The translations under genes and the position numbers were made by a program. Source: a virus. Taken from it: a stretch of 32,462 bases of DNA. The DNA is taken from the UHGV virus genome UHGV-0221239; one strand, written 5' to 3'. Below are positions 364-27,559 of the stretch, one piece after another (the first letter of the stretch is position 1; every line of letters begins with the position of its first letter). Below the pieces are notes generated by a model, which was not told where the DNA came from, did not search any database, and saw only the letters and a list, made by a program, of their open reading frames with translations.

Positions 364-963
364 TCAGAACTTATAACCGACACCCACGATGAAACCGTCA
401 GTGCGCCAGTCGCCACTGCCGGAGCCTTCATAAGCAATATCAATGGCCACGGATTCGGTCGGGTTAAACTGCACGCCAGCTCCCCACGCCAGAGACGTGT
501 TGCTGTGGCGACCGTCATCACTTCCGGTCAGCACGTCGTGCGTTTTCCCCTTGTTGTCAGTTACGCGGAGATAATCCCCGGAGAAAGTCGACACACGGCT
601 GTAAGCCATACCCGCCATCGCATACGCGCTGAACCATTCATTCACGCGCACAGACGGCCCCACCATCACGCTGAACCAGCGGTTACGCACGGAATCTTCA
701 TGCCAGCGGGTATCGCTGTAACGGGTAAGCTGGCGATTCTTGTCTCCTGCATAGCTGAATGACGTCACCATCCCCAGTGTGTCCGTAAACTCATAACGGT
801 ATTTCACGTTAATCCCGTTCAGATCATCGCTGCCGGGAACGTTCGTCGAGGCATGAAGATACCCCGCGCTCAGCGTGGACTGATGTTCAGATGCCCATGC
901 AGGCGCACCGGATACGGCCAGACAAATGGCTGCGGAAAAAATGGCGGCATAAAGTTTACGCAT
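364..963 (-). CDS. lom: Lom outer-membrane protein (Ail/Lom family), 199 aa
   Basis: ORF with signal peptide ([24 protein letters not shown]) and C-terminus ...[26 protein letters not shown] typical of Lom; GAGAGG Shine-Dalgarno upstream; lies directly after J as in lambda. Confidence 0.85.
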
Positions 964-985
964 AATTACCTCTCGCTTTTCTGCA

Positions 986-1011
986 ATAAAAAAGGCACCA
1001 TTTCTGGTGCC
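986..1011 (-). terminator. Rho-independent terminator between J and lom
   Basis: Hairpin ggcacca-tttc-tggtgcc followed on the minus strand by a T-run (plus-strand aaaaaa 988-993). Confidence 0.6.
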
Positions 1012-1032
1012 CTTATATGGGTTATAACAATT

Positions 1033-4000
1033 TCAACGAATACTGATGCCGGAAGCGGCTTTTTTGGTCACAATCACCGTACAGTCGGTGATATTACCTG
1101 CCCGCTGATTGCCTTTATGGAAAACCTTAAACTCCAGAGTGACGCTTCCCCTGCCACTCGGCATATCAATAACCGCACTGTAGCTACCGGGAATGGCCCC
1201 TTTAGTTTCTCTGGATGCGATTAATACACCGTTTTTGCGAACTTCAAAACCATAACCCGTGTATCTTGTACCTCCCGGGTTATTACCACTTCCCGGATCG
1301 CTATACGCTATTCCGTTAAAGATAATGGGCGGAATAATGATTTGACGGTCAAAGTTATGATCATCGCTGATGGTGACTGTAACCGTCCCGTTTGGTGTTT
1401 CCGTATTACCCCACGTACCAGCCTGTTTCGGGAATGATTTGGATACAGCTTTAACGAAGTCACCTCTGACCTGAGTCGCCTCCAGCATGCCCTTAATCGT
1501 ACAGTTTTCATTTACCGTGACATTGTTGAGCGTCCCGGCGTTCGCATTCACACTGCCACTGATATCCGCATTTTTAGCGGTCAGCTTTCCGTCCGGAGTC
1601 AGGGAAAATGCCGGTGGATTTCCACCGCTGGTAATGGTGGGGGCCGTCAGGCGTTTCAGGAACACGTCGTTCATGAATATCTGATCGCCCTGACCAACAA
1701 ACATCGGTTTTGTGTTGCCATTCGCAGGATTAACCATCGCAATCCTGTCCGCCGCCAGCAGCACCTGACTCTGCATGCCGTCAGGGGTGTTCTCAATACC
1801 GGCACCAATACCCGCAATATAAAGGCGTCCGTCCTGCATCTGCTGCAGCTTCACAGCCCACATGCTGTTCAGGTTATTATTTGTATCAACCTGAACTTTC
1901 TGTATCTGCTGGATCGCTGCACTCTGGTCTTCCAGTTTCTTATTGACGGTCTGTGTGATTTCATTGCTGACATCCGTAATGGACGTCCTGATTTCAGCCA
2001 GGTCAGGCGCAAGCTGACCGTTATCAATCTGCGTCCACAGCTCCTGAGCCAGATGGGTTTTCCCTATCTCGCCTTTGAAAAAATCCAGATAGCCGGATGC
2101 ATCATCACTCGGCTGACCAACAGCCTCCACGAATGCCGATTTGCCAACGGTGTTCACACTGCGAACGTAAAAATAATAATCATGGCCCGGTTTGATATTG
2201 ATACTGGCGGCTATCCAGTACAGTGCCGTACCAAGATAACGCGCGCTGGTTTCAACCTGCCTGATATCCGCAATCCGTTTTTCCGAGAACCAGAACTCAA
2301 ACTGTACCGTCGGGTCATAAACCGCAAGATGCGGCGTGGCGGTTATCTGAAAATAGCCCGGCGTCAGCTCAATCCGCGACGGCGCTGCCGGTGCGGCAAT
2401 CCGGAACGATACCGACGCCGGATCGCCCTGCTGCCCCCACGCATTTACTGCCCGGACTGTCAGCCTGTAGTTCCCCAGAGCCAGTTGTGTGAAGCGGTAA
2501 GTGGTTTCCGTCGTCCGGGCCGTGCTGACCAGCCGCTCACGGCCGTCATCCGCTGCCACGGTCAGGCGAAGCAGGAAGCTCACGCCCTTCACCACCTTCG
2601 GCGTGTCCCAGCGGGCCAGCACCTGATATTCCCCGCTGTCTGCGGTGACTTCTGCGGTCAGGTGCTGCACCGCTGGCGGCGTGACACCATTTACCGTGCC
2701 GCTCTGGTCGCCGTCAAAGTGCGCCCCGTTATCCACGATGGCCTCTTTTTCCGGTACATGCTGCACGGCGGTGATGGCATACGTGCCGTCGTCGTTCTCA
2801 CGGATACTCACGCAGCGGAACAGGCGCTGGCGCAACGTCGGCAGCTTCAGCCCCCATACGCTGTATTCAGCAACGCCGTCAGGAACACGGCTCACTTTCA
2901 CCTTCACGCCGTCGGTGACGGACTGAACCTCCACGCTGACCGGACTCCCCTGCCCGTCAACCAGGCTTATCAGCGTGGTGCCGGAAGATGGCAGCGTGAT
3001 TTCACGGTCGAGCGTCAGCGTCCGGGTCTGGCTGTTTACCGCCAGCACGCGCCCGCCGGTGCGGATACCGGCATAGTCATCATCGCAGATTTCAATGACA
3101 TCCCCCGGTACATGGCGAAGCCCTTCGGCACCCACGCTGAAGTCCACGGTCTGCGTTTCCAGCAGTTCTGTTTTAATCAGCCACAGCCCGGCGCGGTGTG
3201 CCTGCCCCCGGCTGGTACAGCCAAAAGCATCCATCTTCGTGACGTTACGACCGTAACGGGCAATGGCCTGCGTGTCCTCCACAAGCTCTGTCGCCGTCTC
3301 CCAGCCGTTATTCGGGTCAATCCAGTTCACCTCAACGGCATTATGGCGGTCCTTCAGGGCGCTGAAGCTGTAGCGGAACGGCGCACCATCATCCGGCATC
3401 ACCACATTACTGCGGTTATAGGTCCACACCTTATCCGACGGTCGGTCCTGCACGAACGTCAGCGTCTGCCCGTTCCATACCGGCATACAGCGCATCGCAG
3501 AGCAGAAATCACTGAGCACATCCCACGCCTTGCGCTGTGTGGTCAGGTACGCATTACAGGTGATGCGCGGCTCCGTGCCGCCAAAACCGTCCGGCACCGA
3601 CTGATCGCAATGCTGGCCGATGACATACAGCGCCCATTTGTCCACATCCGCCGCACCAAGACGTTTCCCCATGCCGTAGCGCGGATGGGTCAGCATATCC
3701 CACAGACACCAGGCCATGTTGTTGCTGTATGCTGGCTTAAACGTTCCGTCCCAGATACCGCTGTATTGCCGCGTCTGCGGGTTATAGTTCGACGGCACCT
3801 GCAGAATGCGCCCGCGCAGATGATAATTACGGCTCACCTGCTGGCTGCCGAACTGCTCCGAGTCCACCTGCACGCCGACCAGTGCCGTGTTCGGGTAGCA
3901 CTGTTTCACATCGATGATTTCGGTGTATGACGACCAGAGCGTTTTGTTCTGCAGCTGGTCTGTGGTGCTGTCCGGCGTCATCCTGCGCATCCGGATATTA

Positions 4001-4530
4001 AACGGGCGCGGCGGCAGGTTATCCACCACCACCGAGGCCAGATACTGCGAGGTGGTTTTGCCCTTAATGGTGATGTCTTTTTCCGTCACCCAGCCACCAT
4101 TACGCTGTATCTGAACCAGCAGGCGAACTTCCGACGGATTCCGGTCCCCCTTTGAGGTGGTTTCCACCAGTGCCTGCACACCGAAGGTAAAGCGCAGTCG
4201 GTCGATGTTTGCCGACGTGATGGTGCGGGTGATCGGCGTGTCGTATTTCACTTCCGTACCCAGCACCGTCTCGGAGCCGGAGGATTCAAATCCCTCCGGC
4301 GGAGTCTGCTCCTGCTCACCAGCCCGGAACACCACCGTGACACCGGCGATGTTGGTATTCCCCTCACTGTCCAGCACCGGCGTACTGTTCAGCAGCACGC
4401 TTTTTAATCCATCCACCGGACCTTCAATCGGCCCTTCACTGATGGCATCAATCACACTCAGCAACTGCGTGGATTTCAGGTTGTCCTTCGCTTCGCGCGG
4501 GGTATGCCCCTTACTGCTGCCTTTACCCAT
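1033..4530 (-). CDS. J: Tail tip / host specificity protein J, 1165 aa
   Basis: Long ORF beginning [54 protein letters not shown]..., recalled as lambda J; position after I. Confidence 0.95.
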
Positions 4531-4590
4531 TCGTCACGCTCCATAAACGACAAAACCGCCCGCAGGCGATTTCACATAAAATGTTTTGCA

Positions 4591-5262
4591 TCAGCGACCA
4601 ATCACCACAACCTGACCACCATCCCCTTCGTCTGCCGTGCTGATCTCCTGAGAAACCACCCGTGACCCCACGCGCATTTCACCGTACAGAACAGGCAGAA
4701 CATTGCCTTGGGCAACCATGTTATCCAGTGAGGAGAAATAGGTGTTCTGCTTACCGTTATCCGTTGTCTGTGTACGGGGAGTTCTGGCTTTCGGTGCCAG
4801 CATCTGCGCCACACCACCAAGTACCATACTGGCACCGAGAGAAAACAGGATACCGGTCATACCACCGGCCCCAATGGCTGCCCCCCATGCTGCAAGGGTG
4901 GCTCCGGCAGTAAAGAATGATCCGGCAATGGCGGCAGCCCCCAGAACAATCTGGAATACGCCACCTGACTTGGCCCCGGCGACTCTGGGAACAATATGAA
5001 TCACAGCGCCATCAGGCAGAGTCTCATGTAACTGCGCCGTTAACCCGGACGTGCTGACGTCCCGCCCGGCAATCCGTACCTGATACCAGCCGTCGCTCAG
5101 TTTCTGACGAAACACCGGGAGCTGTGTGGCCAGTGCGCGGATAGCTTCAGCCCCCGTTTTCACACGAAGGTCGATGCGGCGGCCAAATCGTTGCAAATCC
5201 CCGTAAAGGCAGATGCGCGCCATGCCCGGTGACGCCAGAGGGAGTGTGTGCGTCGCTGCCAT
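4591..5262 (-). CDS. I: Tail assembly protein I, 223 aa
   Basis: ORF MAATHTLPLASPGMARICLYGDLQRFGRRIDLRV...; start overlaps the 3' end of K as in lambda. Confidence 0.9.
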   Translation of the reverse strand: MAATHTLPLASPGMARICLYGDLQRFGRRIDLRVKTGAEAIRALATQLPVFRQKLSDGWYQVRIAGRDVSTSGLTAQLHETLPDGAVIHIVPRVAGAKSGGVFQIVLGAAAIAGSFFTAGATLAAWGAAIGAGGMTGILFSLGASMVLGGVAQMLAPKARTPRTQTTDNGKQNTYFSSLDNMVAQGNVLPVLYGEMRVGSRVVSQEISTADEGDGGQVVVIGR

Positions 5263-5903
5263 TTGTCGGTATACCTCTCTCGTTTACTCAGTTGTTCAGG
5301 AATATGGTGCAGCAGCTCGCCGTCACCACAGTAAATGGCAGCATGATTCGGCACCGATGAACCAAAACAACACAGCAGCACATCGCCCGGTTGTGCTGAT
5401 GACAACGGCACCTGATACAGCCCTGTGGCCTCCAGATTATCCAGATAGAGATTCTGACCGTGACGCCACCAGTCATCCTCGCGATGAAAATCCGGCATCT
5501 CAATCCCCGCCAGATGGTAAGCATCCCGGAACAGCGTGTAACAGTCCGTCACCCCGTGCTCAAAGCGCCGCCCGGTGAGATGCGGCACACAGCGGAACTT
5601 ATGAATCGTCCCCCGGCAGACCAGCCACCACGGCAAATCACTCTGCACCTGCAGCCGCCGGTCGGCCTCACTCAGCCTGGGCAGACCACCGGGGTGGCTG
5701 TGGACCAGCGCCACAATCTCACCCTGCATTTCTGCCTGCAGCCAGTCTTCCGGCGACATACGGAAATACGCCTCCGGCTCACCGGAGATATTCACGCAGG
5801 GGAAATATCTTTCCCCCTCCGGCGTGCTTACCACGAAGCCGCACGACTCCGCTGGCGCACATCGCCGAGCGTGCGCCAGAATCGCTGATTCTGTCTGTGT
5901 CAT
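5160..5903 (-). CDS. K: Tail assembly protein K (NlpC/P60-like), 247 aa
   Basis: ORF MTQTESAILAHARRCAPAESCGFVVSTPEGERYF...; position between L and I. Confidence 0.85.
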   Translation of the reverse strand: MTQTESAILAHARRCAPAESCGFVVSTPEGERYFPCVNISGEPEAYFRMSPEDWLQAEMQGEIVALVHSHPGGLPRLSEADRRLQVQSDLPWWLVCRGTIHKFRCVPHLTGRRFEHGVTDCYTLFRDAYHLAGIEMPDFHREDDWWRHGQNLYLDNLEATGLYQVPLSSAQPGDVLLCCFGSSVPNHAAIYCGDGELLHHIPEQLSKRERYTDKWQRRTHSLWRHRAWRASAFTGICNDLAAASTFV

Positions 5904-5908
5904 GGGAT

Positions 5909-6607
5909 TTACTGCGAAAGTTTGTTAATGGAAAGGAAGCCGCCAAAGTTGCCGACATTATTGCGAAACTTACAGCCACTCAGGCATTTGCTGCATTTAT
6001 CCTTCGTGATATCGGACGTCGGCTGGTCATATTCATCCACGACCGCCGGACCGTTATAACCGCACTCATCACCGCGATAGGTCCAGGTGCAGGTATTAGC
6101 CAGCATGATGCGCCCCGGAAAAACGGCACCATCCGTTTCAGTCGGCGTGGACAGTACAAAGGAGGCACTGACCGCGCTCAATTCGCTGCACTGCTCGATG
6201 CGCCAGCGGCTAATCACCTCCTGCTCCGGATCGGCGTCGCTGTTTCCGTTGACGAAGTTCACCGCATCCAGAAAACGGGCATAAACCTTACGCCTGACCA
6301 CCGTTCCGCCGACCAGACTCTGCAGATCTTCCGCCATCCCGGTGACCATGCCATACAGGTTAGAAACCGTCAGCGTGGGGCGCGTACTGGTGCCTTTGCC
6401 ATTCAGTTCGAAACCACTCCCCTGAATGGGATACGCCTGATACTGTCGCCCCTGCCAGGTGACCGGCTCACCTTTTTCGTTCTGCTCATTACAGAAAAAA
6501 TAACGTTCTCCACCGACCTCTGTCAGGTCGATTTCCCATAGCACCACGCTGGCCGACTGCTCCGCACGGGTGCATTCATTCAGTGTTTCCTGCCGGATAT
6601 CCTGCAT
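5909..6607 (-). CDS. L: Tail tip assembly protein L, 232 aa
   Basis: ORF MQDIRQETLNECTRAEQSASVVLWEIDLTEVGGERYFFCNEQNEKGEPV..., recalled as lambda L. Confidence 0.9.
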   Translation of the reverse strand: MQDIRQETLNECTRAEQSASVVLWEIDLTEVGGERYFFCNEQNEKGEPVTWQGRQYQAYPIQGSGFELNGKGTSTRPTLTVSNLYGMVTGMAEDLQSLVGGTVVRRKVYARFLDAVNFVNGNSDADPEQEVISRWRIEQCSELSAVSASFVLSTPTETDGAVFPGRIMLANTCTWTYRGDECGYNGPAVVDEYDQPTSDITKDKCSKCLSGCKFRNNVGNFGGFLSINKLSQ

Positions 6608-6936
6608 CAGTTCACCACCTGTTCAAACTCTGCGCTGAACTCAACACGCAACATACTGACCCGCGACGACCATTTTGCGCAGGTCACCTTTATCTGCCGC
6701 CACTCATAAGGCGGCGTCCACAGAAAGGATTTCCAGCCCCCGTGCTCTTCCAGAAACGACTCCAGTACCGTGGCCTCCTCACGGGGGACAGAAAGCGTCA
6801 CGCTGTACGTTTTCAGGTTGGCATTCAGCCCGGCAGGCGCTCGCTGAGAATAGCCATCACCAAAGCGCACCTTTCTTACAGAAGGGACCGAAGCCACATC
6901 CATACCGGGTTTCACTTTCCAGCGGAAGGTCTTCAT
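6607..6936 (-). CDS. M: Tail tip protein M, 109 aa
   Basis: ORF MKTFRWKVKPGMDVASVPSVRKVRFGDGYSQRAPAGLNANLKTYSVTLSV...; start overlaps the end of H. Confidence 0.9.
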   Translation of the reverse strand: MKTFRWKVKPGMDVASVPSVRKVRFGDGYSQRAPAGLNANLKTYSVTLSVPREEATVLESFLEEHGGWKSFLWTPPYEWRQIKVTCAKWSSRVSMLRVEFSAEFEQVVN

Positions 6937-9494
6937 CGTCCACCTCCGGAGAACAGGCCACCATCACGCATCTGTGTCTGAATTTCATCACGGGCACCCT
7001 TGCGGGCCATGTCATACACCGCCTTCAGAGCAGCCGGACCTATCTGCCCGTTCGTGCCGTCGTTGTTAATCACCACATGGTTATTCTGCTCAAACGTCCC
7101 GGACGCCTGCGACCGGCTGTCTGCCATGCTGCCCGGTGTACCGACATAACCGCCGGTGGCATAGCCGCGCATCAGCCGGTAAAGATTCCCCACGCCAATC
7201 CGGCTGGTTGCCTCCTTCGTGAAGACAAACTCACCACGGTGAACAATCCCCGCTGGCTCATATTTGCCGCCGGTTCCCGTAAATCCTCCGGTTGCAAAAT
7301 GGAATTTCGCCGCAGCGGCCTGAATGGCTGTACCGCCTGACGCGGATGCGCCGCCACCAACAGCCCCGCCAATGGCGCTGCCGATACTCCCGACAATCCC
7401 CACCATTGCCTGCTTAAGCAGAATTTCTGTCATCATGGACAGCACGGAACGGGTGAAGCTGCGCCAGTTCTGCTCACTGCCGGTCAGCATCGCCGCCATA
7501 TTCTGTGCAATACCATCAAAGGTCTGCGTGGCTGCACTTTTTACCTGCGACATACTGTCCGTGGCGCTCTCTTCCCACTCACTCCAGCCGGACTTCAGGC
7601 CTGCCATCCAGTTCCCGCGAAGCTGGTCTTCAGCCGCCCAGGTCTTTTTCTGCTCTGACATGATGTTATTCAGCGCCAGCGGATTATCGCCATACTGTTC
7701 CTTCAGGCGCTGTTCCGTGGCTTCCCGTTCTGCCTGCCGGTCAGTCAGCCCCCGGCTTTTCGCATCAATGGCGGCCCGTTTTGCCCGTTGCTGCTGTGCG
7801 AATTTATCCGCCTGCTGCGCCAGCGCGTTCAGGCGCTCCTGATACGTAACCTTGTCGCCAAGTGCAGCCAGCTGGCGTTTGTACTCCAGCGTCTCATCTT
7901 TATGCGCCAGCAGGGATTTCTCCTGTGCAGACAGCTGGCGACGTTGCGCCGCCTCCTCCAGTACCGCGAACTGACTCTCCGCCTTCCACAAATCCCGGCG
8001 CTGCTGGCTGATTTTCTCATTTGCTCCGGCATGCTTCTCCAGCGTCCGGAGTTCTGCCTGAAGCGTCAGCAGGGCAGCATGAGCACTGTCTTCCTGACGA
8101 TCGCCCGCAGACACCTTCACGCCGGACTGTTTCGGCTTTTTCAGCGTCGCTTCATAATCCTTTTTCGCCGCCGCCATCAGCGTGTTGTAATCCGCCTGCA
8201 GAATTTTCCCGTCTTTCAGTGCCTTGTTCAGTTCTTCCTGACGGGCGGTATATTTCTCCAGCGGCGTCTGCAGCCGTTCGTAAGCCTTCTGCGCCTCTTC
8301 GGTATATTTCAGCCGTGACGCTTCGGTATCGCTCTGCTGCTGCGCATTTTTGTCCTGTTGACTCTGCTGCTCAGCCTTCTTTCGGGCGGCTTCAAGCGCA
8401 AGACGGGCCTTTTCACGATCATCCCAGTAACGCGCCCGCGCTTCATCGTTAACAAAATAATCATCCTTGCGCAGATTCCAGATATCGTCCGCTTTCTTAA
8501 ACGCGGCCTCTGCCTTAATCAGCATCTCCTGCGCGGTATCAGGACGACCAATATCCAGCACCGCATCCCACATGGATTTGAATGCCCGTGCTGTCCTGTC
8601 TGCCCAGGTTTCCAGCGTGCCCATGTTCTCTTTCAAGCGTCGGGTCTGGTCATCAAACCCTTTCGTTGCGGCCTCGTTCGCCGCCTGCAATGCCCCGGCT
8701 TCATCGCCGGAACGCTGCAACTGAGCAACATACGCAATCTGCTCCGCCGTCACGTTATGGAACTGGCGTGCCATCGCCGTCAGCCCCGACGTCGGGTCTG
8801 TGGTCAGCTTCCCGAAGGCTTCAGCGACCTTGTCCACCTCCACGCCGGATGCAGAGGAGAAACGCGCCACACTCTGGCTGATGGACGCAATCTGAGCCTC
8901 ACCGCTTACCCCCGCCTTAACCAGTGCGCTGAGTGACTCGCTGGTCTGGTTAAACGTCAGCCCTGCCGCCTGCCCGGCTCTGGACAGGACCAGCATACGA
9001 TCTGCCGTCAGTCCCGCCTGATTGCCGGAAAGGACCAGCGTTTTGTTGAAATCGGACAGGGTTGAGTTGCCCTGATACCAGGCATACGCCAGCGCTCCGG
9101 TCGCCACCGCCAGCGAGGTAGCCCCCACCATCGGCAGGGTGATCGCACCGGCAAGCCCCCGGAACATGGGGATCATCCCGCCGAAGGAGTCCTTCACCTG
9201 ACCCCCCTGTTGCAGCAGGATCAGCCACGGGCTTTGCCCGCCTGCAAGCTGCGTGGCCACGTCGGTGAACTGTGCAGGCAGCATACGCATGGCGGCTTTA
9301 TACTGTCCGACGGAAATCCCCGCTTTCTGTGCAGCCAGCGCCTGCCGGTTCATTGACTGTTCAACGACTGCCGCTGTTTTTTTCGCATCACTTTCCGTAC
9401 CGGAAAAATGACGCCTGACTCTGGCCATCTGCTCGTCAAATCTGGCCGCATCCAGACTCAAATCAACGACCAGATCGCCTACCGGTTCAGCCAT
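6933..9494 (-). CDS. H: Tail tape measure protein H, 853 aa
   Basis: 853-aa ORF, Ala/Gln/Glu-rich coiled-coil centre and glycine-rich C-terminus; directly downstream of the G/T frameshift pair. Confidence 0.95.
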   Translation of the reverse strand: MAEPVGDLVVDLSLDAARFDEQMARVRRHFSGTESDAKKTAAVVEQSMNRQALAAQKAGISVGQYKAAMRMLPAQFTDVATQLAGGQSPWLILLQQGGQVKDSFGGMIPMFRGLAGAITLPMVGATSLAVATGALAYAWYQGNSTLSDFNKTLVLSGNQAGLTADRMLVLSRAGQAAGLTFNQTSESLSALVKAGVSGEAQIASISQSVARFSSASGVEVDKVAEAFGKLTTDPTSGLTAMARQFHNVTAEQIAYVAQLQRSGDEAGALQAANEAATKGFDDQTRRLKENMGTLETWADRTARAFKSMWDAVLDIGRPDTAQEMLIKAEAAFKKADDIWNLRKDDYFVNDEARARYWDDREKARLALEAARKKAEQQSQQDKNAQQQSDTEASRLKYTEEAQKAYERLQTPLEKYTARQEELNKALKDGKILQADYNTLMAAAKKDYEATLKKPKQSGVKVSAGDRQEDSAHAALLTLQAELRTLEKHAGANEKISQQRRDLWKAESQFAVLEEAAQRRQLSAQEKSLLAHKDETLEYKRQLAALGDKVTYQERLNALAQQADKFAQQQRAKRAAIDAKSRGLTDRQAEREATEQRLKEQYGDNPLALNNIMSEQKKTWAAEDQLRGNWMAGLKSGWSEWEESATDSMSQVKSAATQTFDGIAQNMAAMLTGSEQNWRSFTRSVLSMMTEILLKQAMVGIVGSIGSAIGGAVGGGASASGGTAIQAAAAKFHFATGGFTGTGGKYEPAGIVHRGEFVFTKEATSRIGVGNLYRLMRGYATGGYVGTPGSMADSRSQASGTFEQNNHVVINNDGTNGQIGPAALKAVYDMARKGARDEIQTQMRDGGLFSGGGR

Positions 9495-10325
9495 ACCGGA
9501 CTCCTCCTGCGATCCCTTCTGATACTGTCATCAGCATTACGTCATCCTCCGTCATGTCCGCCACATCCGGGGAAGCGGGGATAACTTCATTCCCGTCCGG
9601 GCCAAAGCGGACGCCTCCGGCAAGCCCTGCCGCTTTCTGCATCAGCACATCATCTTCAGGCTCTTCGTCAGCCTCGCGCCGGTTCAGCAGACTGAAATCC
9701 AGCGGATGCATATCCGGATCGCTGAAAAACAGGCTGAGTACGGTGTACGTCAGCCCGGAAAAGTGCATATCCAGCAGAACATCATGAAAATAATGGGTAC
9801 TGTAAAAGCGGTGCCAGTCGGCATACTCCGTGGATGACATCCCGGCAAGCATGGCGCGCCAGTCGGGTCGCCCCATCTCACGCGCCAGTTTCAGGGCAAA
9901 ACTCAGCTCACCGTCGAACACTTTCCCGCAGAAACAGGCTCTGCTGGCCCGGCGTCATCTGCCTGTTCAGGTGCATCATTCACAACAAACTCAGACATAC
10001 CGGACAGACGCATTACCACATTTTCAGCCTGAGCAATTGCCTCTGTGGGCCAGGTGGTAAGCACTTCCTGCTCAATTTGTTTAACGGCTTCATTCATGGA
10101 CGGCATCTTTGTCTTCTGCGGATGGCTATGCCACAGGGACATCGCCACCAGAAAAGCACCGGTTCTGACGAGATCTTCCACGCTCACCTGTCGATTGAGA
10201 CTGGATCCCGCCTGTTCTGCCTGTCGTTTCAGCAGGGCGAGATGCTCAATTCGCTGCAGGGCTGACAGTTCAGAAAGCGTGACGCTCACACCGTTATATT
10301 CAAATGATTCGGTTTTCAGGAACAT
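9487..10325 (-). CDS. T: Tail assembly chaperone G-T fusion, made by programmed -1 frameshift from the G frame into the T frame
   Basis: G ORF (9903-10325) and overlapping -1 frame ORF (9487-9921) joined at the heptamer G GGA AAG; the shifted frame reads GKVFDGELSFALKLAREMGRPDW..., exactly the T ORF in the track. Confidence 0.8.
9903..10325 (-). CDS. G: Tail assembly chaperone G, 140 aa
   Basis: ORF MFLKTESFEYNGVSVTLSELSALQRIEHLALLKRQAEQAG...; ends ...AGKCSTVS just after the slippery site. Confidence 0.9.
   Translation of the reverse strand: MFLKTESFEYNGVSVTLSELSALQRIEHLALLKRQAEQAGSSLNRQVSVEDLVRTGAFLVAMSLWHSHPQKTKMPSMNEAVKQIEQEVLTTWPTEAIAQAENVVMRLSGMSEFVVNDAPEQADDAGPAEPVSAGKCSTVS
9921..9927 (-). 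other. Programmed -1 ribosomal frameshift slippery heptamer (G GGA AAG on the minus strand)
   Basis: Plus-strand ctttccc at 9921-9927 is GGGAAAG on the coding strand, 16 nt before the G stop; the -1 frame continues into the 144-aa T ORF. Confidence 0.75.
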
Positions 10326-10340
10326 CGCTGACTCTCCGGA

Positions 10341-11081
10341 TTAACTGTCGGTGACGGTGATTTCTGCAACCACAGCAAGTTCACCATTACCGGATACAAC
10401 CGGAATGTTGACCTTGCCTGCAGCAACACCTTTCACGGTGATGGTCATACCACTGACCGACACGGTGGCTTTTGTTTTATCCGCAGACACCGCACGGAAG
10501 CTCTTGTCGGTTGCGCCTTCCGGCTGGAATGCCACGGTCAGCGTGGTGCTCTGCCCTTTCACCACCGAAGTGCTGGCAGGCGTCACGGTCATGCCGGTTG
10601 CCGCTGTTACCGTGCTGCGATCTTCTGCCATCGACGGACGTCCCACATTGGTGACCTTCACCGTGCGGGTAATCACTTCCTTCGCCGTCACCGCCTTACC
10701 GATACTGCTGACCCAGCCACGGAACACATCGACCGTGCCGTTCGGGAAGCGGATTTTATAGGCACGGGTATCACCTTCATTAAACCACGCCAGCAGCGCC
10801 TGCTGCCCCTGCTCTCCGGGCATCCACGCCAGCGTGAAGCTGGTATCTCCGGCAGATTTCTGCCCCTGCCCGGTCGCAGTCCAGTCTGCATCTTTATCAT
10901 CGAGATAGCTGTCGTCATAGGACTCAGCGGTCAGTTCGCCGGGCGTCAGGTCTTTAACTTTTGCCAGACGCGACCAGTCAACGTCTGAAAGCGGGTTCGC
11001 ATAAGGGTCACCGCTCCCCTTATAAACCCACAGGGTGGTCCCGGCACCTTTCACCGGCATTGTAGGATTTGGTACAGGCAT
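10341..11081 (-). CDS. V: Major tail tube protein V, 246 aa
   Basis: ORF in the track starts 10 codons upstream; start refined to [26 protein letters not shown]..., which has a GAGGA Shine-Dalgarno; C-terminal Ig-like region. Confidence 0.9.
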
Positions 11082-11088
11082 AGCGTCC

Positions 11089-11484
11089 TCACATTTCATA
11101 GGTAATGACATAAGTCAGATCGGCTGAACTCCACAGGCCCGCATCATCGTCGCGCCGGTAGTCATAGCCACTGGCCACCATACTGGTGATCAAATCTGAC
11201 AGTGCCGGGATATCGCTCATCACCGGATAAATCCGGGACTCCATCCACGCATCCAGCTCTGAATCCGGCACCTGAGCAGGCAGGAAAACTTCAATATGCA
11301 GCTCCGCCTGCCAGGTATCGCTGTCCAGCTCTTCGCCCGTGTATTCAGCGCCGGTGAGATAAACGGCAATTGCCGGAAAATCTTCCTCATCAAAAACAGC
11401 GGGGCGACCATCAAAAAGCGTCGCCCCGGTGTCATGCTTCTCCAGTGCATCCAGTACGGCTGCACGGAGTTCAGTATGTTTCAT
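11089..11484 (-). CDS. U: Tail terminator protein U, 131 aa
   Basis: [53 protein letters not shown]...; lambda gene order. Confidence 0.9.
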
Positions 11485-12059
11485 CGCTTTATTACCATCC
11501 TCAGTTGATGCTGCAGCGCATAGCCCAGCTCTTTCGGAAGACGCTCACGCCGTATCCGCTCAATATTCTGTTTAAACGCCGTGGTCAGCGGCACCGCCAT
11601 CGGGATTTTCACCACATCAATGGGGTAACGGTTTTTCCCGGCCACACGCTGCATGACATGCCAGCGGCCATTTTTCAGTTGCTGAATAAACGCGCCGGGA
11701 ATACGACGGTTTCCCACCACAAGCACGCTGCCGCCACCTTTCAGGGCTGAACGCTGCCCCTTTTTACGACGCCTGCGTCGGGACAGGACAATCCGCGCGT
11801 TACCCAGCTTTATTACGGGCAAATCCCCCCGGTTAACCTTGATTCTGGCCTGCGGATTTTTGACCGTGGCCCTTTTCAGCCTGGCCCTTTCCTTTACCAG
11901 TTTCCGGCGTACCTTTGTCTCACGGGCAACCTGTGACGCCGACTGCGATATCGCGGATGAAGCAACGCGGTTAATAGCCATTGCGGCGGCACCGGGCACC
12001 GCCGCTCTGCTGATACGACTGAGGTTTTCAACGGCCTGCTCAAGACCTTTTATGGCCAT
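11481..12059 (-). CDS. Z: Tail completion protein Z, 192 aa
   Basis: ORF MAIKGLEQAVENLSRISRAAVPGAAAMAINRVASSAISQSASQVARETKV...; overlaps the U start. Confidence 0.9.
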   Translation of the reverse strand: MAIKGLEQAVENLSRISRAAVPGAAAMAINRVASSAISQSASQVARETKVRRKLVKERARLKRATVKNPQARIKVNRGDLPVIKLGNARIVLSRRRRRKKGQRSALKGGGSVLVVGNRRIPGAFIQQLKNGRWHVMQRVAGKNRYPIDVVKIPMAVPLTTAFKQNIERIRRERLPKELGYALQHQLRMVIKR

Positions 12060-12070
12060 ACATCCCCCTT

Positions 12071-12424
12071 TCAGCGGCGACGGTTAACGGCAGGCGGTAC
12101 GCCCCGCCCAAGCCAGAGATGACAGCTTCCGCCATCATCCGGCGAAATCCGGTCTATCCAGAAGTTTTCCTCACCGATGGTCAGCGTGTCGCCGCGCCGC
12201 AGCTGCCGCACATCATCAGTCCGGACAAACAGGGACGGGCTGGAGCCTTCAACGCGCACGCCCTGTCCGGCATAGCTGATATTTTCAGGGTCATCAAAAA
12301 CACCACGTATCACAGCACCGGACTGCTCACCGGATGTCATGGTGGCTGACGTTCCCATGTACCCGCGTATCGTTTCATCGGCGCGGGCAATGGCAGCATC
12401 GAACAGGTTATCGAAATCAGCCAC
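12071..12424 (-). CDS. FII: Head-tail joining protein FII, 117 aa
   Basis: ORF MADFDNLFDAAIARADETIRGYMGTSA...; the track start is a GTG codon. Confidence 0.85.
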   Translation of the reverse strand: MADFDNLFDAAIARADETIRGYMGTSATMTSGEQSGAVIRGVFDDPENISYAGQGVRVEGSSPSLFVRTDDVRQLRRGDTLTIGEENFWIDRISPDDGGSCHLWLGRGVPPAVNRRR

Positions 12425-12435
12425 AGCGCCTCCCG

Positions 12436-12831
12436 TTATTGCATTCTGGCCAGGCCGCGCTCTGTCATTTCAGCTGACACACCGGCAGAGACACGGAACG
12501 CCGTTCCCGGCAGCACAAATGCCACAGCCTCATCCCGCGTGGCGTGAAGTGCATCAGTATGCAGCGTCACCAGTGCCACAACCGTGACCAGATCAGCCGT
12601 ATCAGTCACGGTATCCGGCTGCGCTGATACAACCTCATTTTCATGTCCGGTCAGCGCATTTTCCGGGCTGACAGATGTGTCCTGACCGGCAGCGTCATCC
12701 GTGTCATCAAGCTCCTCTTCCAGCTCTGCCACACGGAGCACCAGTTCTTCTTTCGTCCCCGTCAGGCTGACATCACGGTTCAGTTGCTCACCCAGCACCT
12801 GAAGACGGGCAATCAGTTCATCTTTCGTCAT
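12436..12831 (-). CDS. FI: DNA packaging protein FI, 132 aa
   Basis: Start refined to the in-frame ATG giving MTKDELIARLQVLGEQLNRDVSLTGTKEEL..., preceded by GAGGAG; the track ORF begins 13 codons upstream. Confidence 0.85.
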   Translation of the reverse strand: MTKDELIARLQVLGEQLNRDVSLTGTKEELVLRVAELEEELDDTDDAAGQDTSVSPENALTGHENEVVSAQPDTVTDTADLVTVVALVTLHTDALHATRDEAVAFVLPGTAFRVSAGVSAEMTERGLARMQ

Positions 12832-12872
12832 AGACTCCTCCACAGAGAGAAAATGGCCCCGAAGGGCCATGA

Positions 12873-13898
12873 TTACGCCAGTTGTACGGACACGAACGCA
12901 TCAGGGTCAGCCAGCAGCATCAGCGGTGCTGACTGAATCATGGTGAACTCACGCGCCGGATCGCCGGTGGTCACCCAGTTTTTCGGGTAGCGGGCAGAGG
13001 CGTTAATACCTTCGCGCTGTGCGTCCGCATCCTGAATGCAGCCATAGGTGCGCAGACCGCGTGCCTGAGTGTTCCCCAGCACCATCGAGTTGTCCGGAAG
13101 GAAGTTCTTTTTGACGTCGTTTTCCACGTACTGTCCGGAATACACGACGATCGCCGTATCGCCATACATCCCCTTATAGGACACCGCTTCGCCCAGGTCT
13201 TTTACCGCTGTCTCCAGCTCGGAATTAGAGCCGCGACGGGTATCCAGCTTCTCCTTGACGGCTTTGAAGGAACGGAACAGCGCCCAGCCTTTCGGATCAA
13301 ACACGATGATATTCACCACTCCGCTGGCGTTCAGCGCATAGGCTTCGATATCGTCGGTCGGGTCATACGTGGACTTGTCACGCTTGCTCCACTCCGTACC
13401 ACCGGACTGTGTGATGTTGTTCGCCGCACTGCGGCCCATATCCACCTCAACCGGATCGAAGGCTTCACCGGTCATGGTGTATTTGCCCTTAAGCACAGCA
13501 GAAACTGCCTGCATCTCTTCGACCTGAGCAATGGCCAGCTCTTCGTCTCGCATGTTCTGCATGATGATGCGACGGCGGCGGTAAGCCGGGTCCGCCAGAT
13601 TCTGCGGATCTTCATCCGGCAGGCGACGCAGGGTCATCTGCGGATTCACCTCATGCTTCGGCTTGACATATCCCGGTGTAAATTCAGAGGTGGAGCCGCC
13701 ACGGGAGCGGATAACCTCACCGGAAACAATCGGCGAAACGTACAGCGCCATGTTTACCAGTCCCGGAATTTGTGAGAGATAGACTTTCTCCGTGATGAAG
13801 GGATAGCTCTCACGGAAAAAGAGACGCAGAAACAGCGGATCAAACTTAAATTTCTTCTCATTTGCCGCCAGCAGCTGGGCGGTTGTGTACATCGACAT
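12873..13898 (-). CDS. E: Major capsid protein E, 341 aa
   Basis: Start refined to MSMYTTAQLLAANEKKFKFDPLFLRLFFRESYPF...; characteristic lambda gpE sequence. Confidence 0.95.
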   Translation of the reverse strand: MSMYTTAQLLAANEKKFKFDPLFLRLFFRESYPFITEKVYLSQIPGLVNMALYVSPIVSGEVIRSRGGSTSEFTPGYVKPKHEVNPQMTLRRLPDEDPQNLADPAYRRRRIIMQNMRDEELAIAQVEEMQAVSAVLKGKYTMTGEAFDPVEVDMGRSAANNITQSGGTEWSKRDKSTYDPTDDIEAYALNASGVVNIIVFDPKGWALFRSFKAVKEKLDTRRGSNSELETAVKDLGEAVSYKGMYGDTAIVVYSGQYVENDVKKNFLPDNSMVLGNTQARGLRTYGCIQDADAQREGINASARYPKNWVTTGDPAREFTMIQSAPLMLLADPDAFVSVQLA

Positions 13899-13953
13899 AA
13901 AAAAATCCCGTAAAAAAAGCCGCACAGGCGGCCTTTAGTGATGAAGGGTAAGG

Positions 13954-14286
13954 TTAAACGATGCTGATTGCCGTTCCGGCAAACGCGGTCCGTTTTTTCG
14001 TCTCGTCGCTGGCAGCCTCCGGCCAGAGCACATCCTCATAACGGAACGTGCCGGACTTGTAGAACGTCAGCGTGGTGCTGGTCTGGTCAGCATCAACCGC
14101 CAGAATGCCAACGGCAGTACCGTCGGTGGTGCCATCCCACGCAACCAGCTTACGGGTGGAGGTGTCCAGCATCAGCGGGGTCATTGCAGGCGCTTTCGCA
14201 CTCAATCCGCCGGGCGCGGTTGCCGTATGTGCCGGGTCACTGTTGCCCAGCGGCTGGTAATGGGTAAAGGTTTCTTTGCTCGTCAT
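13954..14286 (-). CDS. D: Head decoration protein D, 110 aa
   Basis: Start refined to [43 protein letters not shown]... Confidence 0.9.
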
Positions 14287-14295
14287 AAACATCCC

Positions 14296-15595
14296 TTACA
14301 CTGGTGTGTTCAGCAAATCGTTAACGGCATCAGATGCCGGGTTACCTGCAGCCAGCGGTGCCGGTGCCCCCTGCATCAGACGATCCAGCGCAGTGTCACT
14401 GCGCGCCTGTGCACTCTGTGGTGCAGCTGCCAGAATGCGGCGGGCCGTTTCCACGGTCATACCGGGGGTTTCTGCCAGCACGCGGGCCTGTACTTCGCGT
14501 CCGTGAGCCTCCTCACAGTTGAGGATCCCCATAATGCGGCTGTTTTCTGCCGCAACCGCAGCGGTGATCTGCGCGTTCACGTCCGGCTGCGCCGCGCTGG
14601 CGTTTTCGCCCTCCGTCGCTGGCACCACGTCAGTAACGTCAGTCTGCGAAGCAGTGGCTGAAACAGTTGTTGATTGAGTCTCTTTGGTCATTCGCCCTCC
14701 TGAGAGACGGGATTTACGCGCATCCAGTGCATCACGCATGACGGTGATCGCATCGGTGCTGTTAACAAGTTCATCAGCCAGTCCGGCATCAATGGCCTCC
14801 TGACCGCTGTACACTGCAGCCTCGGTATCCAGCACAGCCTGCACAGACAGGCCGGTATATGCCGACACCTTCTGCGCAAACATCTGGCGGGTTGCGTCCA
14901 TCCGGGACTGCAGTGTCTCCCGGACGTCATCCGGAAGATGGCTGTAGGGATTGCCATCCACCTTATGGCTGCCGCTGTAAATCAGCGTGATTTCCACACC
15001 CTGTTTCTCCAGGGCAGCACCGTAATTACTGTGAGCCATCATGACGCCGATGGAGCCTGTCCGGGCGGTCTGCGTGACCAGACGCCGGGAGGCGGCACTG
15101 GCAAGCAGCTGACCTGCACTGCAGTTCATGTCGTTGGCCAGCGCCCATACCGGTTTTATGTCTCGCACACGGGCGATGATGTCAGCGCAGTCAAATGCCC
15201 CCGCCACCATTCCGCCTGGCGTGTCCATATCGAGCAGAATGCCGTCCACCATCGGGTCGCTGGCAGCCTGTTGCAGACGGGCGATAATGCCGTTGTAACC
15301 GGTCATCCCCGAGTACGGCTGCAGCGCCCGCGTCCGGCTGACCAGCGTGCCGGACACCGGCAGCACGGCGATGCCGTTCATGACCTGATAACTGCGGGCC
15401 TGTCGTGGTCCGTCATCATCACCGGATAATGCCAGCGTCGCGAGTGCCTCCTGGGCAGTCAGGCTGTCGCCGGACACCGCATCCGTCAGGCGGCTGATCC
15501 CAAGCTGGCCTGCAAGCGCACAAAAGAAAACCCGCGCATAGGCGGGTTCAAGCATCAGCGGCTCATTAAAGGCCATGCTGGCAATATGCGGGAGA

Positions 15596-15615
<20 letters not shown>
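14296..15615 (-). CDS. C: Head maturation protease / scaffold C, 439 aa, GTG start; the Nu3 scaffold is expected in-frame within its 3' part
   Basis: ORF region reading (V)TAELRNLPHIASMAFNEPLMLEPAYARVFF...; GTG start preceded by a GGAGGAG Shine-Dalgarno; S49-type protease motifs. The track ORF extends 49 codons further upstream into B. Confidence 0.85.
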
Positions 15616-19296
<3,681 letters not shown>

Positions 19297-19322
<26 letters not shown>

Positions 19323-19842
19323 TCAGCAACCCCGGTATCAGTTCATCCAGCGCGGCTGCTTTGTTCATGGCTTTGATGATATCCCGTTTCAGGAAATCAA
19401 CATGTCGGTTTTCCAGTTCCGGAAAACGCCGCTGCACCGACAGGGGGATCCCGTCGAGAATACTGGCAATTTCACCTGCGATCCGCGACAACACGAAAGT
19501 ACAGAATGCGGTTTCCACCACTTCAGCGGAGTCTCTGGCATTCTTCAGTTCCTGTGCGTCGGCCTGCGCACGCGTAAGTCGATGGCGTTCGTACTCAATA
19601 GTCCCTGGCTGGAGATCTGCCTCGCTGGCCTGCCGCAGTTCTTCAACCTCCCGGCGCAGCTTTTCGTTCTCAATTTCAGCATCCCTTTCGGCATACCATT
19701 TTATGACGGCGGCAGAGTCATAAAGCACCTCATTACCCTTGCCACCGCCTCGCAGAACGGGCATTCCCTGTTCCTGCCAGTTCTGAATGGTACGGATACT
19801 CGCACCGAAAATGTCAGCCAGCTGCTTTTTGTTGACTTCCAT
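19297..19842 (-). CDS. nu1: Terminase small subunit Nu1, 181 aa
   Basis: ORF MEVNKKQLADIFGASIRTIQNWQEQGMPVLRGGGKGNEVLYDSAAVIKWY... with an N-terminal helix-turn-helix; immediately downstream of cos. Confidence 0.95.
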
Positions 19843-20464: not shown

Positions 20465-20521
20465 AGCAATTTAGATAATCGTGCAGACTAGGTACCTTCA
20501 TATCACATGGAAGGTACTACA

Positions 20522-20932
20522 ATGGCTCAGGTTGCCATTTTTAAACAAATATTCGATAAAGTGCGAAATAATTTAAACTATCACTGGTTTTATTCTGAAC
20601 TAAAACGTCACAATGTCTCACATTACATTTACTATTTAGCCACAGAGAATATTCATCTTGTTCTTGAAAACGATAATACGGTTTTAATAAAAGGACAGGG
20701 TAAGGTTGTAAATGTAAGATTTTCAAAAAATAAATGCCTTATAGAAGCCACATTAAAAGGATTCAAATCAGGAGAGTTATCATTTTACGAATACAGGAAA
20801 AATCTTGCTACAGCAGGGGTTTTCAGATGGATTACAAATATCCACGAAAACAAAAGGTATTACTATACCTTTGATAATTCATTACTCTTTACTGAGAACA
20901 TTCAGAACACTACACAAATATTTCCGCACTAA
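20522..20932 (+). CDS. Hypothetical phage protein, 136 aa; possibly YbcV/DUF1398-like
   Basis: ORF refined to start at [30 protein letters not shown]... with GGAAGG upstream; AT-rich codon usage unlike the neighbouring structural genes. Family assignment is tentative. Confidence 0.55.
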
Positions 20933-21610: not shown

Positions 21611-22099
21611 TTAATAGCTATCAGAAGTAATCGCTACAGATTTCAATCCCTCAATGTCATCCTTGGACAGGGCGAACCATTCACCGTGCTTTCTCTTTGC
21701 GGCAAATTTGCGATGAAGCATGTTTTCAGTTTCTCTTCCACCAGGGATCAGGCACTCAAGCTTCAAGCAGTCTGGTCCAGAGTTGCCAAGCGATTTGATG
21801 CGTTGTGGAATGTTGGATGAATACCCAATTTTGGTTAGCCCAGTTTTCTTCGATGACAAAACGTATACCTGAGGAGGTTCTTTTCTCTGGTCTTCCATTA
21901 CACGTCTCATTGTTGCCATAAGTCCGCCGTGCATCAGCATTTCAACAAAGAACGCTGACCGAACACCTGACGACTTAAGCATGCCAGAAAATTCACTTGC
22001 CAATTCCATTAACTCTGCGATGTTTTCAGGAACTTTTTGGCAGTTATCTTCCTTGTATAAGGAAATCATTCTTTGAAGCTTTTCTTCTAATTGGTTCAT
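21611..22099 (-). CDS. T5orf172 / GIY-YIG-like domain protein, 162 aa from the ATG (174 aa from the upstream GTG in the track)
   Basis: C-terminal half PQVYVLSSKKTGLTKIGYSSNIPQRIKSLGNSGPD...ENMLHRKFAAKRKHGEWFALSKDDIEGL fits the T5orf172 (MUG113) motif pattern (YVL..., KIG-T, R, E..LH..F, GEWF); N-terminal roughly 85 aa are of unknown function. Confidence 0.7.
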   Translation of the reverse strand: MNQLEEKLQRMISLYKEDNCQKVPENIAELMELASEFSGMLKSSGVRSAFFVEMLMHGGLMATMRRVMEDQRKEPPQVYVLSSKKTGLTKIGYSSNIPQRIKSLGNSGPDCLKLECLIPGGRETENMLHRKFAAKRKHGEWFALSKDDIEGLKSVAITSDSY

Positions 22100-22248
22100 A
22101 GCGTCTTTACCTTTTAGAAAGTGAGCCTGTCTCACAGAAAAGCCGCCCCGAGATGGTCGCCACCATATACGGCAGTTCTCAGGCTCAACTTTCTGAAAGG
22201 CTCGGGTGATGCAATATGCGCGTGAGATGCGCTGTGAAATTCAGATGT

Positions 22249-22763: not shown

Positions 22764-23257
22764 TGTTTCCCCCACAAACAGACTTCACGCTCAATCTCAC
22801 GGCGAGTCATCAGTCCTTTCCATTGATTACCGCCAGCGTATGTCCAGCGCCGTAGCTGATCACATGCGCCTTTAATATCACCCTGGTTTATTTTGCGAAG
22901 AAGCGTCGATGTTCTGAAATTGCCAGCACCCACGTTGTAGACGAACGAGTAAAGAGCGCCGCGCGTTGTTTCCGGTATATCGACTTTGATGTACCGGTTA
23001 ATTTGTCTGGCGACAGTGGCAAGGTCTTTATTCAGGAGGGCTTTGCACTCTGCTTCGGTATACGTTTTACCGGGAATGATGTCTTTTCCTGTATGCCCGT
23101 AACATACAGTCCATACACCAACTATGTCTTTGTAAGGATTATGTCTCACACCTTCCAGACCATCGTTACCACTTGGGCCAGTGATTAACACAGATGCTAT
23201 AGCAATAGCCCCGCCACCAATAGCAGCAGCAACAGCTTTTCGTAATGATGGAGGCAT
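22760..23257 (-). CDS. R: SAR endolysin (phage 21 R-type lysozyme, GH24), 165 aa
   Basis: [40 protein letters not shown]...: Gly/Ala-rich signal-anchor-release domain followed by a T4-lysozyme-like domain. Confidence 0.9.
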
Positions 23258-23472
23258 TATTCACCTCTCGCAGCCTTGCGCTTATCTTCTTTAATCTTGA
23301 AATAAAGGTTTGTCAGGTACGTCAGCAGGCCAAATACCAGGCTACCCAGCACACCTATTGCTGCCCACTGTGAGGGCGTGACTTTATCGAGCAGCTGTAA
23401 AAACCAGTACCCGGCACTACCTGCTGAGGTGCCATAGGCGACACCCGTTGTTAACTTATCCATGGATTTCAT
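23257..23472 (-). CDS. S: Pinholin (phage 21 S-type holin), 71 aa, dual-start motif MKSMDK
   Basis: [74 protein letters not shown]: two TM segments, charged C-terminus, Met1 and Met4 starts. Confidence 0.9.
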
Positions 23473-24045: not shown

Positions 24046-25143
24046 ATGAAAAAATTAACAGTGGCAATTTCTGCTGTAGCTGCATCAGTACTGATGGCGA
24101 TGTCTGCTCAGGCAGCTGAAATTTATAATAAAGACAGTAACAAGCTGGATCTGTACGGGAAAGTTAATGCTAAGCACTACTTCTCCTCTAATGATGCAGA
24201 TGATGGTGATACTACTTATGCCCGTCTTGGCTTCAAAGGTGAAACCCAAATCAACGATCAACTGACTGGTTTCGGTCAGTGGGAATATGAATTCAAAGGC
24301 AACCGCGCTGAATCTCAAGGTTCCTCCAAAGACAAAACCCGTCTTGCATTTGCAGGCCTGAAATTCGGTGACTACGGCTCAATCGATTACGGCCGTAACT
24401 ACGGTGTAGCATACGACATCGGTGCGTGGACTGACGTTCTGCCAGAATTCGGTGGCGATACCTGGACCCAAACAGATGTGTTCATGACTGGTCGCACCAC
24501 TGGTGTTGCAACCTATCGTAACAACGACTTCTTTGGTCTGGTTGATGGTCTGAACTTTGCTGCTCAGTACCAAGGCAAAAACGATCGTAGCGATTTCGAT
24601 AACTACACTGAAGGTAACGGTGATGGCTTCGGTTTCTCTGCTACCTATGAATACGAAGGATTCGGTATCGGTGCAACTTATGCGAAATCTGATCGTACCG
24701 ACACTCAAGTTAATGCAGGGAAAGTTCTTCCTGAAGTATTTGCTTCCGGTAAAAATGCAGAAGTTTGGGCCGCAGGTCTGAAATATGACGCTAACAACAT
24801 TTACCTGGCCACTACCTATTCTGAAACCCAGAATATGACTGTATTTGCTGATCACTTCGTTGCTAATAAAGCCCAAAACTTCGAAGCTGTTGCACAATAT
24901 CAGTTCGATTTCGGTCTGCGTCCGTCCGTTGCTTACCTGCAATCTAAAGGTAAGGATCTTGGAGTATGGGGCGATCAGGACTTAGTCAAATATGTTGATG
25001 TAGGTGCAACCTATTACTTCAACAAAAATATGTCTACTTTCGTTGATTACAAAATCAACCTGCTTGACAAAAATGACTTCACTAAAGCACTCGGTGTAAG
25101 CACTGATGACATCGTTGCTGTAGGTCTGGTTTACCAGTTCTAA
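24046..25143 (+). CDS. nmpC: Outer-membrane general porin of the OmpC/OmpF/NmpC/Lc family, 365 aa, intact
   Basis: [49 protein letters not shown]...GLVYQF with signal peptide and C-terminal beta-barrel signature ending in F; opposite strand to the flanking Q and lysis genes, as for nmpC in DLP12 and Lc in phage PA-2. Confidence 0.9.
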
Positions 25144-25332: not shown

Positions 25333-25707
25333 TTAATTAGAGTTATTAACAACGATATCCATCTCTAACCGGATATCTAATGCCATTAACATCCCTTCAA
25401 TTATGCCCTCAGCCTTCTGTAACCTTTTCCCGATATAACCATCAGAGCAGCAATGCTTACCTGCCAGTGACATGAATGTCATACCGACTACATAATAATC
25501 TACTAATAAATCGTGCAAATCGCTGTTGTTCTTTTTCAGACGGGCCATGCACCCGCAAATGATCATCGCGTCATCGTCACAACATTGCGGGCGAGATTTT
25601 ACTTTTGAAGGAATTAATCCCTTAAACCAGACCGCTGATTTTGAAGATAATGACTTCAGCGGCAAACGCTCCCTGATGGAGTCTGTCGAAGCGAAGATCA
25701 AAGACAT
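25333..25707 (-). CDS. Q-like late antiterminator (QuuD-like), 124 aa from the first ATG; its first 28 codons lie inside an inverted-repeat copy
   Basis: C-terminal ...[83 protein letters not shown] with Cys clusters; position between the early genes and the porin/lysis block as for quuD. No Shine-Dalgarno precedes the ATG in this orientation. Confidence 0.5.
25624..25697. repeat. Inverted repeat, copy 1 (74 bp perfect; 87 bp with 2 mismatches), partner at 26075-26148
   Basis: The plus-strand sequence aaaccagaccgctgattttgaagataatgacttcagcggcaaacgctccctgatggagtctgtcgaagcgaaga is the exact reverse complement of 26075-26148. Confidence 0.9.
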
Positions 25708-25933: not shown

Positions 25934-25945
25934 TTTGATTACTGC

Positions 25946-25966
25946 AAATGCCCCTGCGGGGGCATT
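25946..25966 (+). terminator. Terminator-like hairpin after the displaced yfdQ-like 3' end
   Basis: aaatgcccc-tgc-ggggcattt perfect 9-bp stem 13 nt after the stop codon; followed by a GGAG-6nt-ATGATG start context at 26052-26067. Confidence 0.4.
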
Positions 25967-26015
25967 TATGGAAACGTAATTAACTCAATAATCTCCGGAT
26001 GGTGAGGGCTTCCTT

Positions 26016-27544: not shown

Positions 27545-27559
27545 GCAAAAGGAAAAGAA

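Follow-up and report, generated by a model that had tools for sequence, protein, structure and literature searches.

The question raised by this locus is how two overlapping reading frames, lodged between a tail tube gene and a tape measure gene, are expressed: as two proteins with separate starts, or as a short chaperone and its frameshifted extension. The window, by which we mean the whole 32,462-nucleotide stretch of virus genome UHGV-0221239 that was analyzed, is a lambdoid prophage read in reverse, in which a lom-like gene and then J through Nu1 occupy positions 364..19842. In phage lambda, the production of gpG and gpGT by -1 programmed ribosomal frameshifting (PRF) at the sequence G_GGA_AAG is experimentally established (PMC5009743, PMC3296357, PMC7618472; Levin, Hendrix & Casjens 1993 and Xu, Hendrix & Duda 2004, 2013, 2014, as cited in PMC5009743). 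The site found in the window is almost certainly the lambda G/GT programmed -1 ribosomal frameshift site, carried by a lambda-like E. coli prophage.

Genes at the locus

V, the major tail gene, and H, the tape measure gene, flank the G/T pair, and all four are encoded on the minus strand. The features needed to follow the argument are listed below.

10341..11081, minus strand: gene V, major tail tube protein; 246 aa; PF16461 and Big_2; 97.6% identical to lambda V
9903..10325, minus strand: gene G, tail assembly chaperone; 140 codons plus TGA at 9905..9903
9906..9954, minus strand: overlap in which the -1 (T) frame is open ahead of the G stop; 49 nt
9921..9927, minus strand: slippery heptamer G_GGA_AAG, read from the sequence; Gly134-Lys135 in the zero frame, GGG AAA in the -1 frame
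9487..9921, minus strand: T segment; 144 codons in the -1 frame plus TGA at 9489..9487
6933..9494, minus strand: gene H, tape measure protein; 853 aa; PF06791 and PF09718; full length, 99.2% identical to lambda H

Family models recognize both halves of the pair. G matches PF06894 (lambda tail assembly chaperone G) with E=1.9e-55 and scores 200.6 bits against the NCBIfam equivalog TIGR01674 (cutoff 74.45), while the T-frame product matches PF06223 (minor tail protein T) and scores 189.1 bits against the equivalog TIGR01715 (cutoff 77.35). A search by sequence for PDB relatives of the GT fusion found none. V lies directly upstream of G, with its start at 11081 and not at the upstream ATG 11111 of the ORF list, and the lambda-type genes U and Z are also found upstream.

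Shine-Dalgarno sequences at normal spacing precede both G (GGAG at 10337..10334) and H (a strong AGGAGGAG, located within the 3' end of T), and the ATG of H falls in an 8-nt overlap with the end of T (ATGGCTGA). Inspection of the sequence ahead of GTG 9921 revealed no Shine-Dalgarno-like sequence at a usable distance; the GTG itself is present. By analogy with lambda, the T segment is expected to be made only as the C-terminal part of the 279-residue GT fusion.

The slip site and its reading frames

The plus strand reads CTTTCCC at 9921..9927, which places GGGAAAG on the minus strand at 9927..9921. The zero-frame register is GCG GGA AAG, the canonical G_GGA_AAG, and the 3' end of G reads CCT GTT TCT GCG GGA AAG TGT TCG ACG GTG AGC TGA (...PVSAGKCSTVS*). 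Fifteen nucleotides, that is, five codons (TGT TCG ACG GTG AGC), separate the heptamer from the stop codon TGA at 9905..9903. In the -1 frame the sequence continues as GGG AAA GTG TTC GAC GGT, with 144 sense codons from GTG 9921 to TGA 9489..9487. The predicted GT fusion comprises 135 + 144 = 279 residues and 30.85 kDa, against 15.29 kDa for G alone. The heptamer falls inside the 49-nt G/T overlap, close to the end of G, and the overlap is bounded upstream by a -1-frame TGA at 9957..9955.

The initial annotation, which left the strand unstated, had proposed a G GGA AAG heptamer in G, a -1 frame running on for 144 codons and a predicted fusion of roughly 279 residues, and all three agree with the sequence. 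Its distance of 16 nt between heptamer and stop holds only as a base-to-base count, taken from the heptamer's final base to the T of the TGA; the spacing proper is 15 nt. A shift in the opposite direction is ruled out because the +1 frame closes after 8 codons.

As a bare string, GGGAAAG has 5 copies in the window, where shuffled sequences predict 4.7 +/- 2.4. There is no enrichment, and a count at chance level is uninformative. What singles out the site is its register, its position and the long -1 ORF behind it. A scan for in-register X_XXY_YYZ heptamers across 19 late genes (6051 codons) returned 11 instances, among which the G heptamer alone lies within five codons of the stop of its own gene. 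The -1 extension that follows it is 144 codons long, compared with 1-83 codons for the other in-register heptamers of the late genes.

Comparison with phage lambda

The 866-bp G-T region aligns to lambda (NC_001416) without indels, and a block of 88 nt around the slip site is identical. The T-frame product matches that of lambda at 146 of 146 residues. G is identical at 120 of 140 residues (86%), and its 20 substitutions are clustered at residues 10-56 and 98-123, with none within 13 codons of the site. The two systems share the heptamer G_GGA_AAG and its register, the five codons (CSTVS) before TGA, a G of 140 residues, a T frame of 144 codons, a fusion of 279 residues, the 8-nt T/H overlap, the V-G-T-H order and the amino acid sequence of the T frame.

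Beyond the substitutions in G, two further differences are seen. The -1 overlap ahead of the G stop measures 49 nt here and 61 nt in lambda; it is 12 nt shorter because GAT replaces the lambda GAG, creating a TGA in the -1 frame. The setting also differs, in that the present element is a chromosomal prophage with an early region that is not that of lambda. At the level of sequence, the differences in G (20 substitutions and a 12-nt shorter overlap) leave the site untouched. Judged in the same way, the locus is the ortholog of lambda G/T, and every sequence-level defining feature of the lambda G/GT family that was tested was found here. The likeness to lambda G/T claimed in the initial annotation is upheld both by this alignment and by the family models.

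Late region and prophage context

The frameshift had been taken at first as confirmation that this part of the tail module is intact. The module is indeed intact in sequence, a conclusion drawn from a separate test and not from the frameshift site, which by itself confirms nothing of the kind. For this test, 21 lambda late-region proteins (Nu1 to lom) were compared with the window by tblastn. From Nu1 to J, 20 of 20 were collinear, full length and uninterrupted; the gene order Z-U-V-G-T-H-M-L-K-I-J is collinear with that of lambda, with all products full length. Identity to lambda is 100% for T and M, 86% for G and FI, 82% for J and 45% for the lom-like gene. The tail-shaft assembly portion of the prophage is intact in sequence.

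Mosaicism is seen inside a late region that is otherwise 97-100% lambda-like, at G (9906..10325) and FI (12439..12831), both on the minus strand. J (1036..4530, minus strand) and the lom-like gene (364..963, minus strand) belong to the same mosaicism. J is also longer here than in lambda, at 1165 versus 1132 residues.

Beyond Nu1, the window holds, from left to right, cos, a DUF1398 gene, a GIY-YIG/T5orf172 gene, Rz, a phage-21-type lysozyme and a holin, followed by a porin gene on the opposite strand and then Q. The right-hand, early region (25800..32462) is not lambda-like. It contains yfdQ (DUF2303) and yfdP-like genes, and no genes of the N, O or P type were seen in it. The positions of the features in this part of the window are as follows.

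20507..20932, plus strand: DUF1398 gene
21611..22135, minus strand: GIY-YIG/T5orf172 gene
23257..23472, minus strand: holin
25333..25821, minus strand: antiterminator Q
28407..29081, same strand as Q: ymfK-type S24/LexA-family repressor
29509..30021, plus strand: truncated tail-fiber N-terminus
30353..30970, plus strand, and 31114..31788, minus strand: tail-fiber assembly genes, in both orientations
32154..32426, minus strand: DNA-invertase fragment

Among the complete E. coli genomes of the collection, none holds the right-hand region contiguously beyond 55%. Since this part is nowhere contiguous in them, the element may be mosaic or defective. With an early region that is not of the lambda type and is perhaps defective, the late operon may therefore never be expressed in the host.

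Rz is separated from cos/Nu1 by two inserted genes, the DUF1398 gene and the GIY-YIG/T5orf172 (MUG113) nuclease-like gene. Between Q and the holin lies a general porin of 365 residues (24046..25143, plus strand; PF00267, E 1e-156), at the position occupied by lc/nmpC-type lysogenic-conversion porins in lambdoid prophages. The stretch with tail-fiber and invertase genes resembles an e14-type invertible region.

Proposed mechanism of gpGT production

Because the slip site, its flanks and the T domain are identical to those of lambda, with H at 99.2% and V at 97.6% identity, the lambda mechanism is expected, with very high confidence, to operate here. The occurrence of the shift, its efficiency and its role in assembly are accordingly those that the lambda experiments lead one to expect.

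Most ribosomes would read G in frame and stop at TGA 9905..9903, yielding the 140-residue chaperone gpG. A small fraction would step one base back on G_GGA_AAG, the tRNA-Gly re-pairing from GGA to GGG and the single E. coli tRNA-Lys (mnm5s2UUU) from AAG to AAA. The shifted ribosomes would then enter GTG TTC GAC and continue through 144 more codons to produce the 279-residue gpGT, with the two frames joined at 9921. In lambda, the zero frame is kept in ~96% of cases and the shift takes place in ~4%, so that gpGT bypasses the G stop (PMC3296357). The resulting gpG:gpGT ratio of ~30:1 is needed for tail assembly (PMC5009743, PMC3296357, PMC7618472) and depends on the thiolation of tRNA-Lys (PMC3296357, PMC7618472).

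The subsequent steps would also follow lambda. There, tail assembly requires both gpG and gpGT; their G parts attach to the tape measure protein and the T domain to the major tail protein, and neither gpG nor gpGT is present in the virion (PMC5009743). By analogy, the G parts of gpG and gpGT would coat the tape measure protein H, and the T domain would recruit the tail tube protein V, allowing the tube to polymerize round H to the correct length. Both gpG and gpGT would again be absent from the virion.

Conservation of the slip site

The same 866 bp is found at 100% identity in many E. coli chromosomes as prophage copies, for instance in ATCC 8739, and 3711 of 5426 complete E. coli genomes contain relatives. 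The G allele of the window is the one prevalent in E. coli chromosomes. Among isolated phages, PhiR11_1 and PhiR42_1 come closest (99.7-99.8%), and the slip heptamer is identical in lambda and PhiR11_1.

Conservation was followed further in 10 progressively diverged GenBank phages and in four viral-contig scans made with the G proteins of four clades. GGGAAAG is invariant among 52 unique close relatives, and in all 92 loci that possess it the distance to the G stop is exactly 15 nt. In 300 of 301 loci across the four G clades, the end of G carries a zero-frame A_AAG from which the -1 frame runs on open; the sole exception has an aberrant G ORF of 207 codons. Heptamers at the 300 loci are G_GAA_AAG (138), G_GGA_AAG (92), A_AAA_AAG (69) and G_GCA_AAG (1). 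The site is kept despite divergence of G to about 27-45% amino acid identity. It follows from these counts that the invariant element is the A-site lysine codon AAG preceded by A. The single tRNA-Lys of E. coli forms a weak pairing with AAG, the minimal site for a -1 shift is A_AAG, and both G_GGA_AAG and A_AAA_AAG are highly shift-prone in this host (PMC5009743).

Systems of the N15/HK225/mEp460 type possess a homologous G (27-50% amino acid identity) and T domain, the same placement, with the tail tube gene on one side and the tape measure gene on the other, and an identical A-site context, A_AAG. Their heptamer differs, being G_GAA_AAG, which is not a perfect X_XXY_YYZ because the P-site codon is GAA. 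In some of these clades the G stop lies 3 or 0 nt past the site instead of 15 nt: it is found 3 nt past G_GAA_AAG in mEp460, Ayreon and Kp4865-4, and directly after it in Providencia phage PSTCR8lys. The 1720a-02 / Stx2d_112808 clade of G/T uses the dnaX heptamer, A_AAA_AAG. In E. coli dnaX itself, an upstream Shine-Dalgarno-like stimulator and a downstream stem-loop accompany a shift of ~50% that gives a truncated product. The site studied here differs from dnaX in that inspection revealed no upstream Shine-Dalgarno-like stimulator of that type, frameshifting is expected at low efficiency, and it would lengthen the product instead of truncating it. The two are alike in the slip itself, the sole tRNA-Lys moving from AAG to AAA in dnaX (PMC5009743) as is expected here.

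Alternative explanations

As implied by GenBank/RefSeq annotation, T could be translated independently from GTG 9921, the heptamer being incidental. A GTG-initiated ORF does exist at this position, and T is listed as a separate CDS in public records; such a listing is, however, an annotation convention and not evidence. The lack of a Shine-Dalgarno-like sequence at a usable distance before the GTG, when G and H each have one, disfavors independent initiation of T. Diverged relatives have no start codon at this point yet keep the in-register A_AAG, and the HK225 record labels its T 'downstream half of translational frameshift product'. The products reported for lambda are gpG and gpGT (PMC5009743). 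We therefore consider a separately started T very improbable. A fusion could also arise by transcriptional slippage, through stuttering of RNA polymerase instead of slippage of the ribosome. Nothing specific speaks for this beyond the short G and A runs at the site, and these are only three bases long (GGG, AAA), whereas transcriptional slippage generally needs far longer homopolymer runs. Moreover, the lambda frameshift ratio responds to tRNA-Lys thiolation (PMC3296357), which points to a translational event, and stuttering is hardly credible as the source of the fusion.

A doubt of another kind is whether the ribosomal frameshift has any current function here, or whether the site is a silent relic in a defective prophage whose late operon is unexpressed. 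The content right of Q lends this some weight: yfdQ/yfdP-like and ymfK/ymfL-like genes, a truncated tail-fiber gene and an invertase fragment are found there, lambda-type N, O and P genes are not among them, and at most 55% of the right-hand part is contiguous in any complete E. coli genome of the collection. On the other hand, the whole late-region set of 21 proteins, Nu1 to lom, is present, with Nu1 through J full length and uninterrupted, an intactness that is unusual for a long-dead prophage, and Q, holin, endolysin and Rz are present as well. On balance we judge the site unlikely to be silent. This question bears on expression alone and leaves the identity of the site unchanged.

With lambda-type ribosomal frameshifting as the preferred reading, the correct products to annotate are gpG (140 residues) and gpGT (279 residues), not the free 144-residue T given in most public records. 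The lambda G/GT frameshift is already known, and the copy described here is real but ordinary: no new biology is involved, because lambda G/GT is the textbook case and the copy is identical at the site.

A predicted RNA structure downstream of the site

Many -1 sites carry a 3' stimulator. A folded element is predicted behind the heptamer:

9843..9913, minus strand: predicted RNA structure, starting 7 nt 3' of the heptamer

The putative structure has an outer helix, formed by 9913..9906 with 9850..9843, and an inner GC-rich hairpin at 9887..9852; its 7-nt distance from the heptamer is typical of -1 PRF stimulators. Folding of the first 100 nt downstream gives -40.6 kcal/mol (z -1.99 against dinucleotide shuffles), and the first 60 nt past the site show no gain in stability over shuffles (z +0.67). 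In a consensus fold of 7 clade representatives, both helices are kept, with compensatory changes. The 39 unique sequences that share the 15-nt spacing have 90% of their cells paired, versus 23-45% with the partners slid, figures to be read with the caveat that the structure was derived from the same sequences that were scored and that the region encodes the conserved N-terminus of T. The double changes exchange G-C and A-U at one outer pair and G-C and C-G at one inner pair, and one of them runs through a synonymous change in T.

Overall, the support for this structure is mixed and weak. No excess of synonymous conservation was found, the diversity of T codons 1-30 being not below that of the rest of T. 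Against synonymous-codon nulls in which the protein is kept, the folded segment scores z -1.5 or -2.6, and values across clades range from -0.4 to -3.0. The two-helix structure is not formed in the mEp460 clade. Levin et al. in 1993 reportedly found no required secondary structure. It is doubtful, on this modeling, that the G/GT shift is tuned by a two-helix RNA at 9913..9843 in the lambda, N15/HK225 and 1720a-02 clades; the predicted structure is a weak lead, which we keep outside the main explanation.

Gene starts and reference records

T is entered as an independent GTG-initiated CDS, without a ribosomal-slippage join, in the reference entries for lambda, PhiR11_1 and E. coli ATCC 8739, whose protein sets consequently lack the 279-residue product. 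Gene Z, intact in the window, is marked in the ATCC 8739 copy as a pseudogene with a frameshift. RefSeq names the GIY-YIG/T5orf172 gene 'GIY-YIG nuclease family protein' in matching E. coli genomes.

The ORF list over-extends several 5' ends relative to lambda. The four genes concerned, with the span in the ORF list and the start equivalent to that of lambda, are the following.

10341..11111, minus strand: V; 256 versus 246 residues; lambda-equivalent start at 11081
5160..5903, minus strand: K; 247 versus 199 residues; lambda-equivalent start at 5759
14296..15762, minus strand: C; 488 versus 439 residues; lambda-equivalent start at 15615
12873..13925, minus strand: E; 350 versus 341 residues; lambda-equivalent start at 13898
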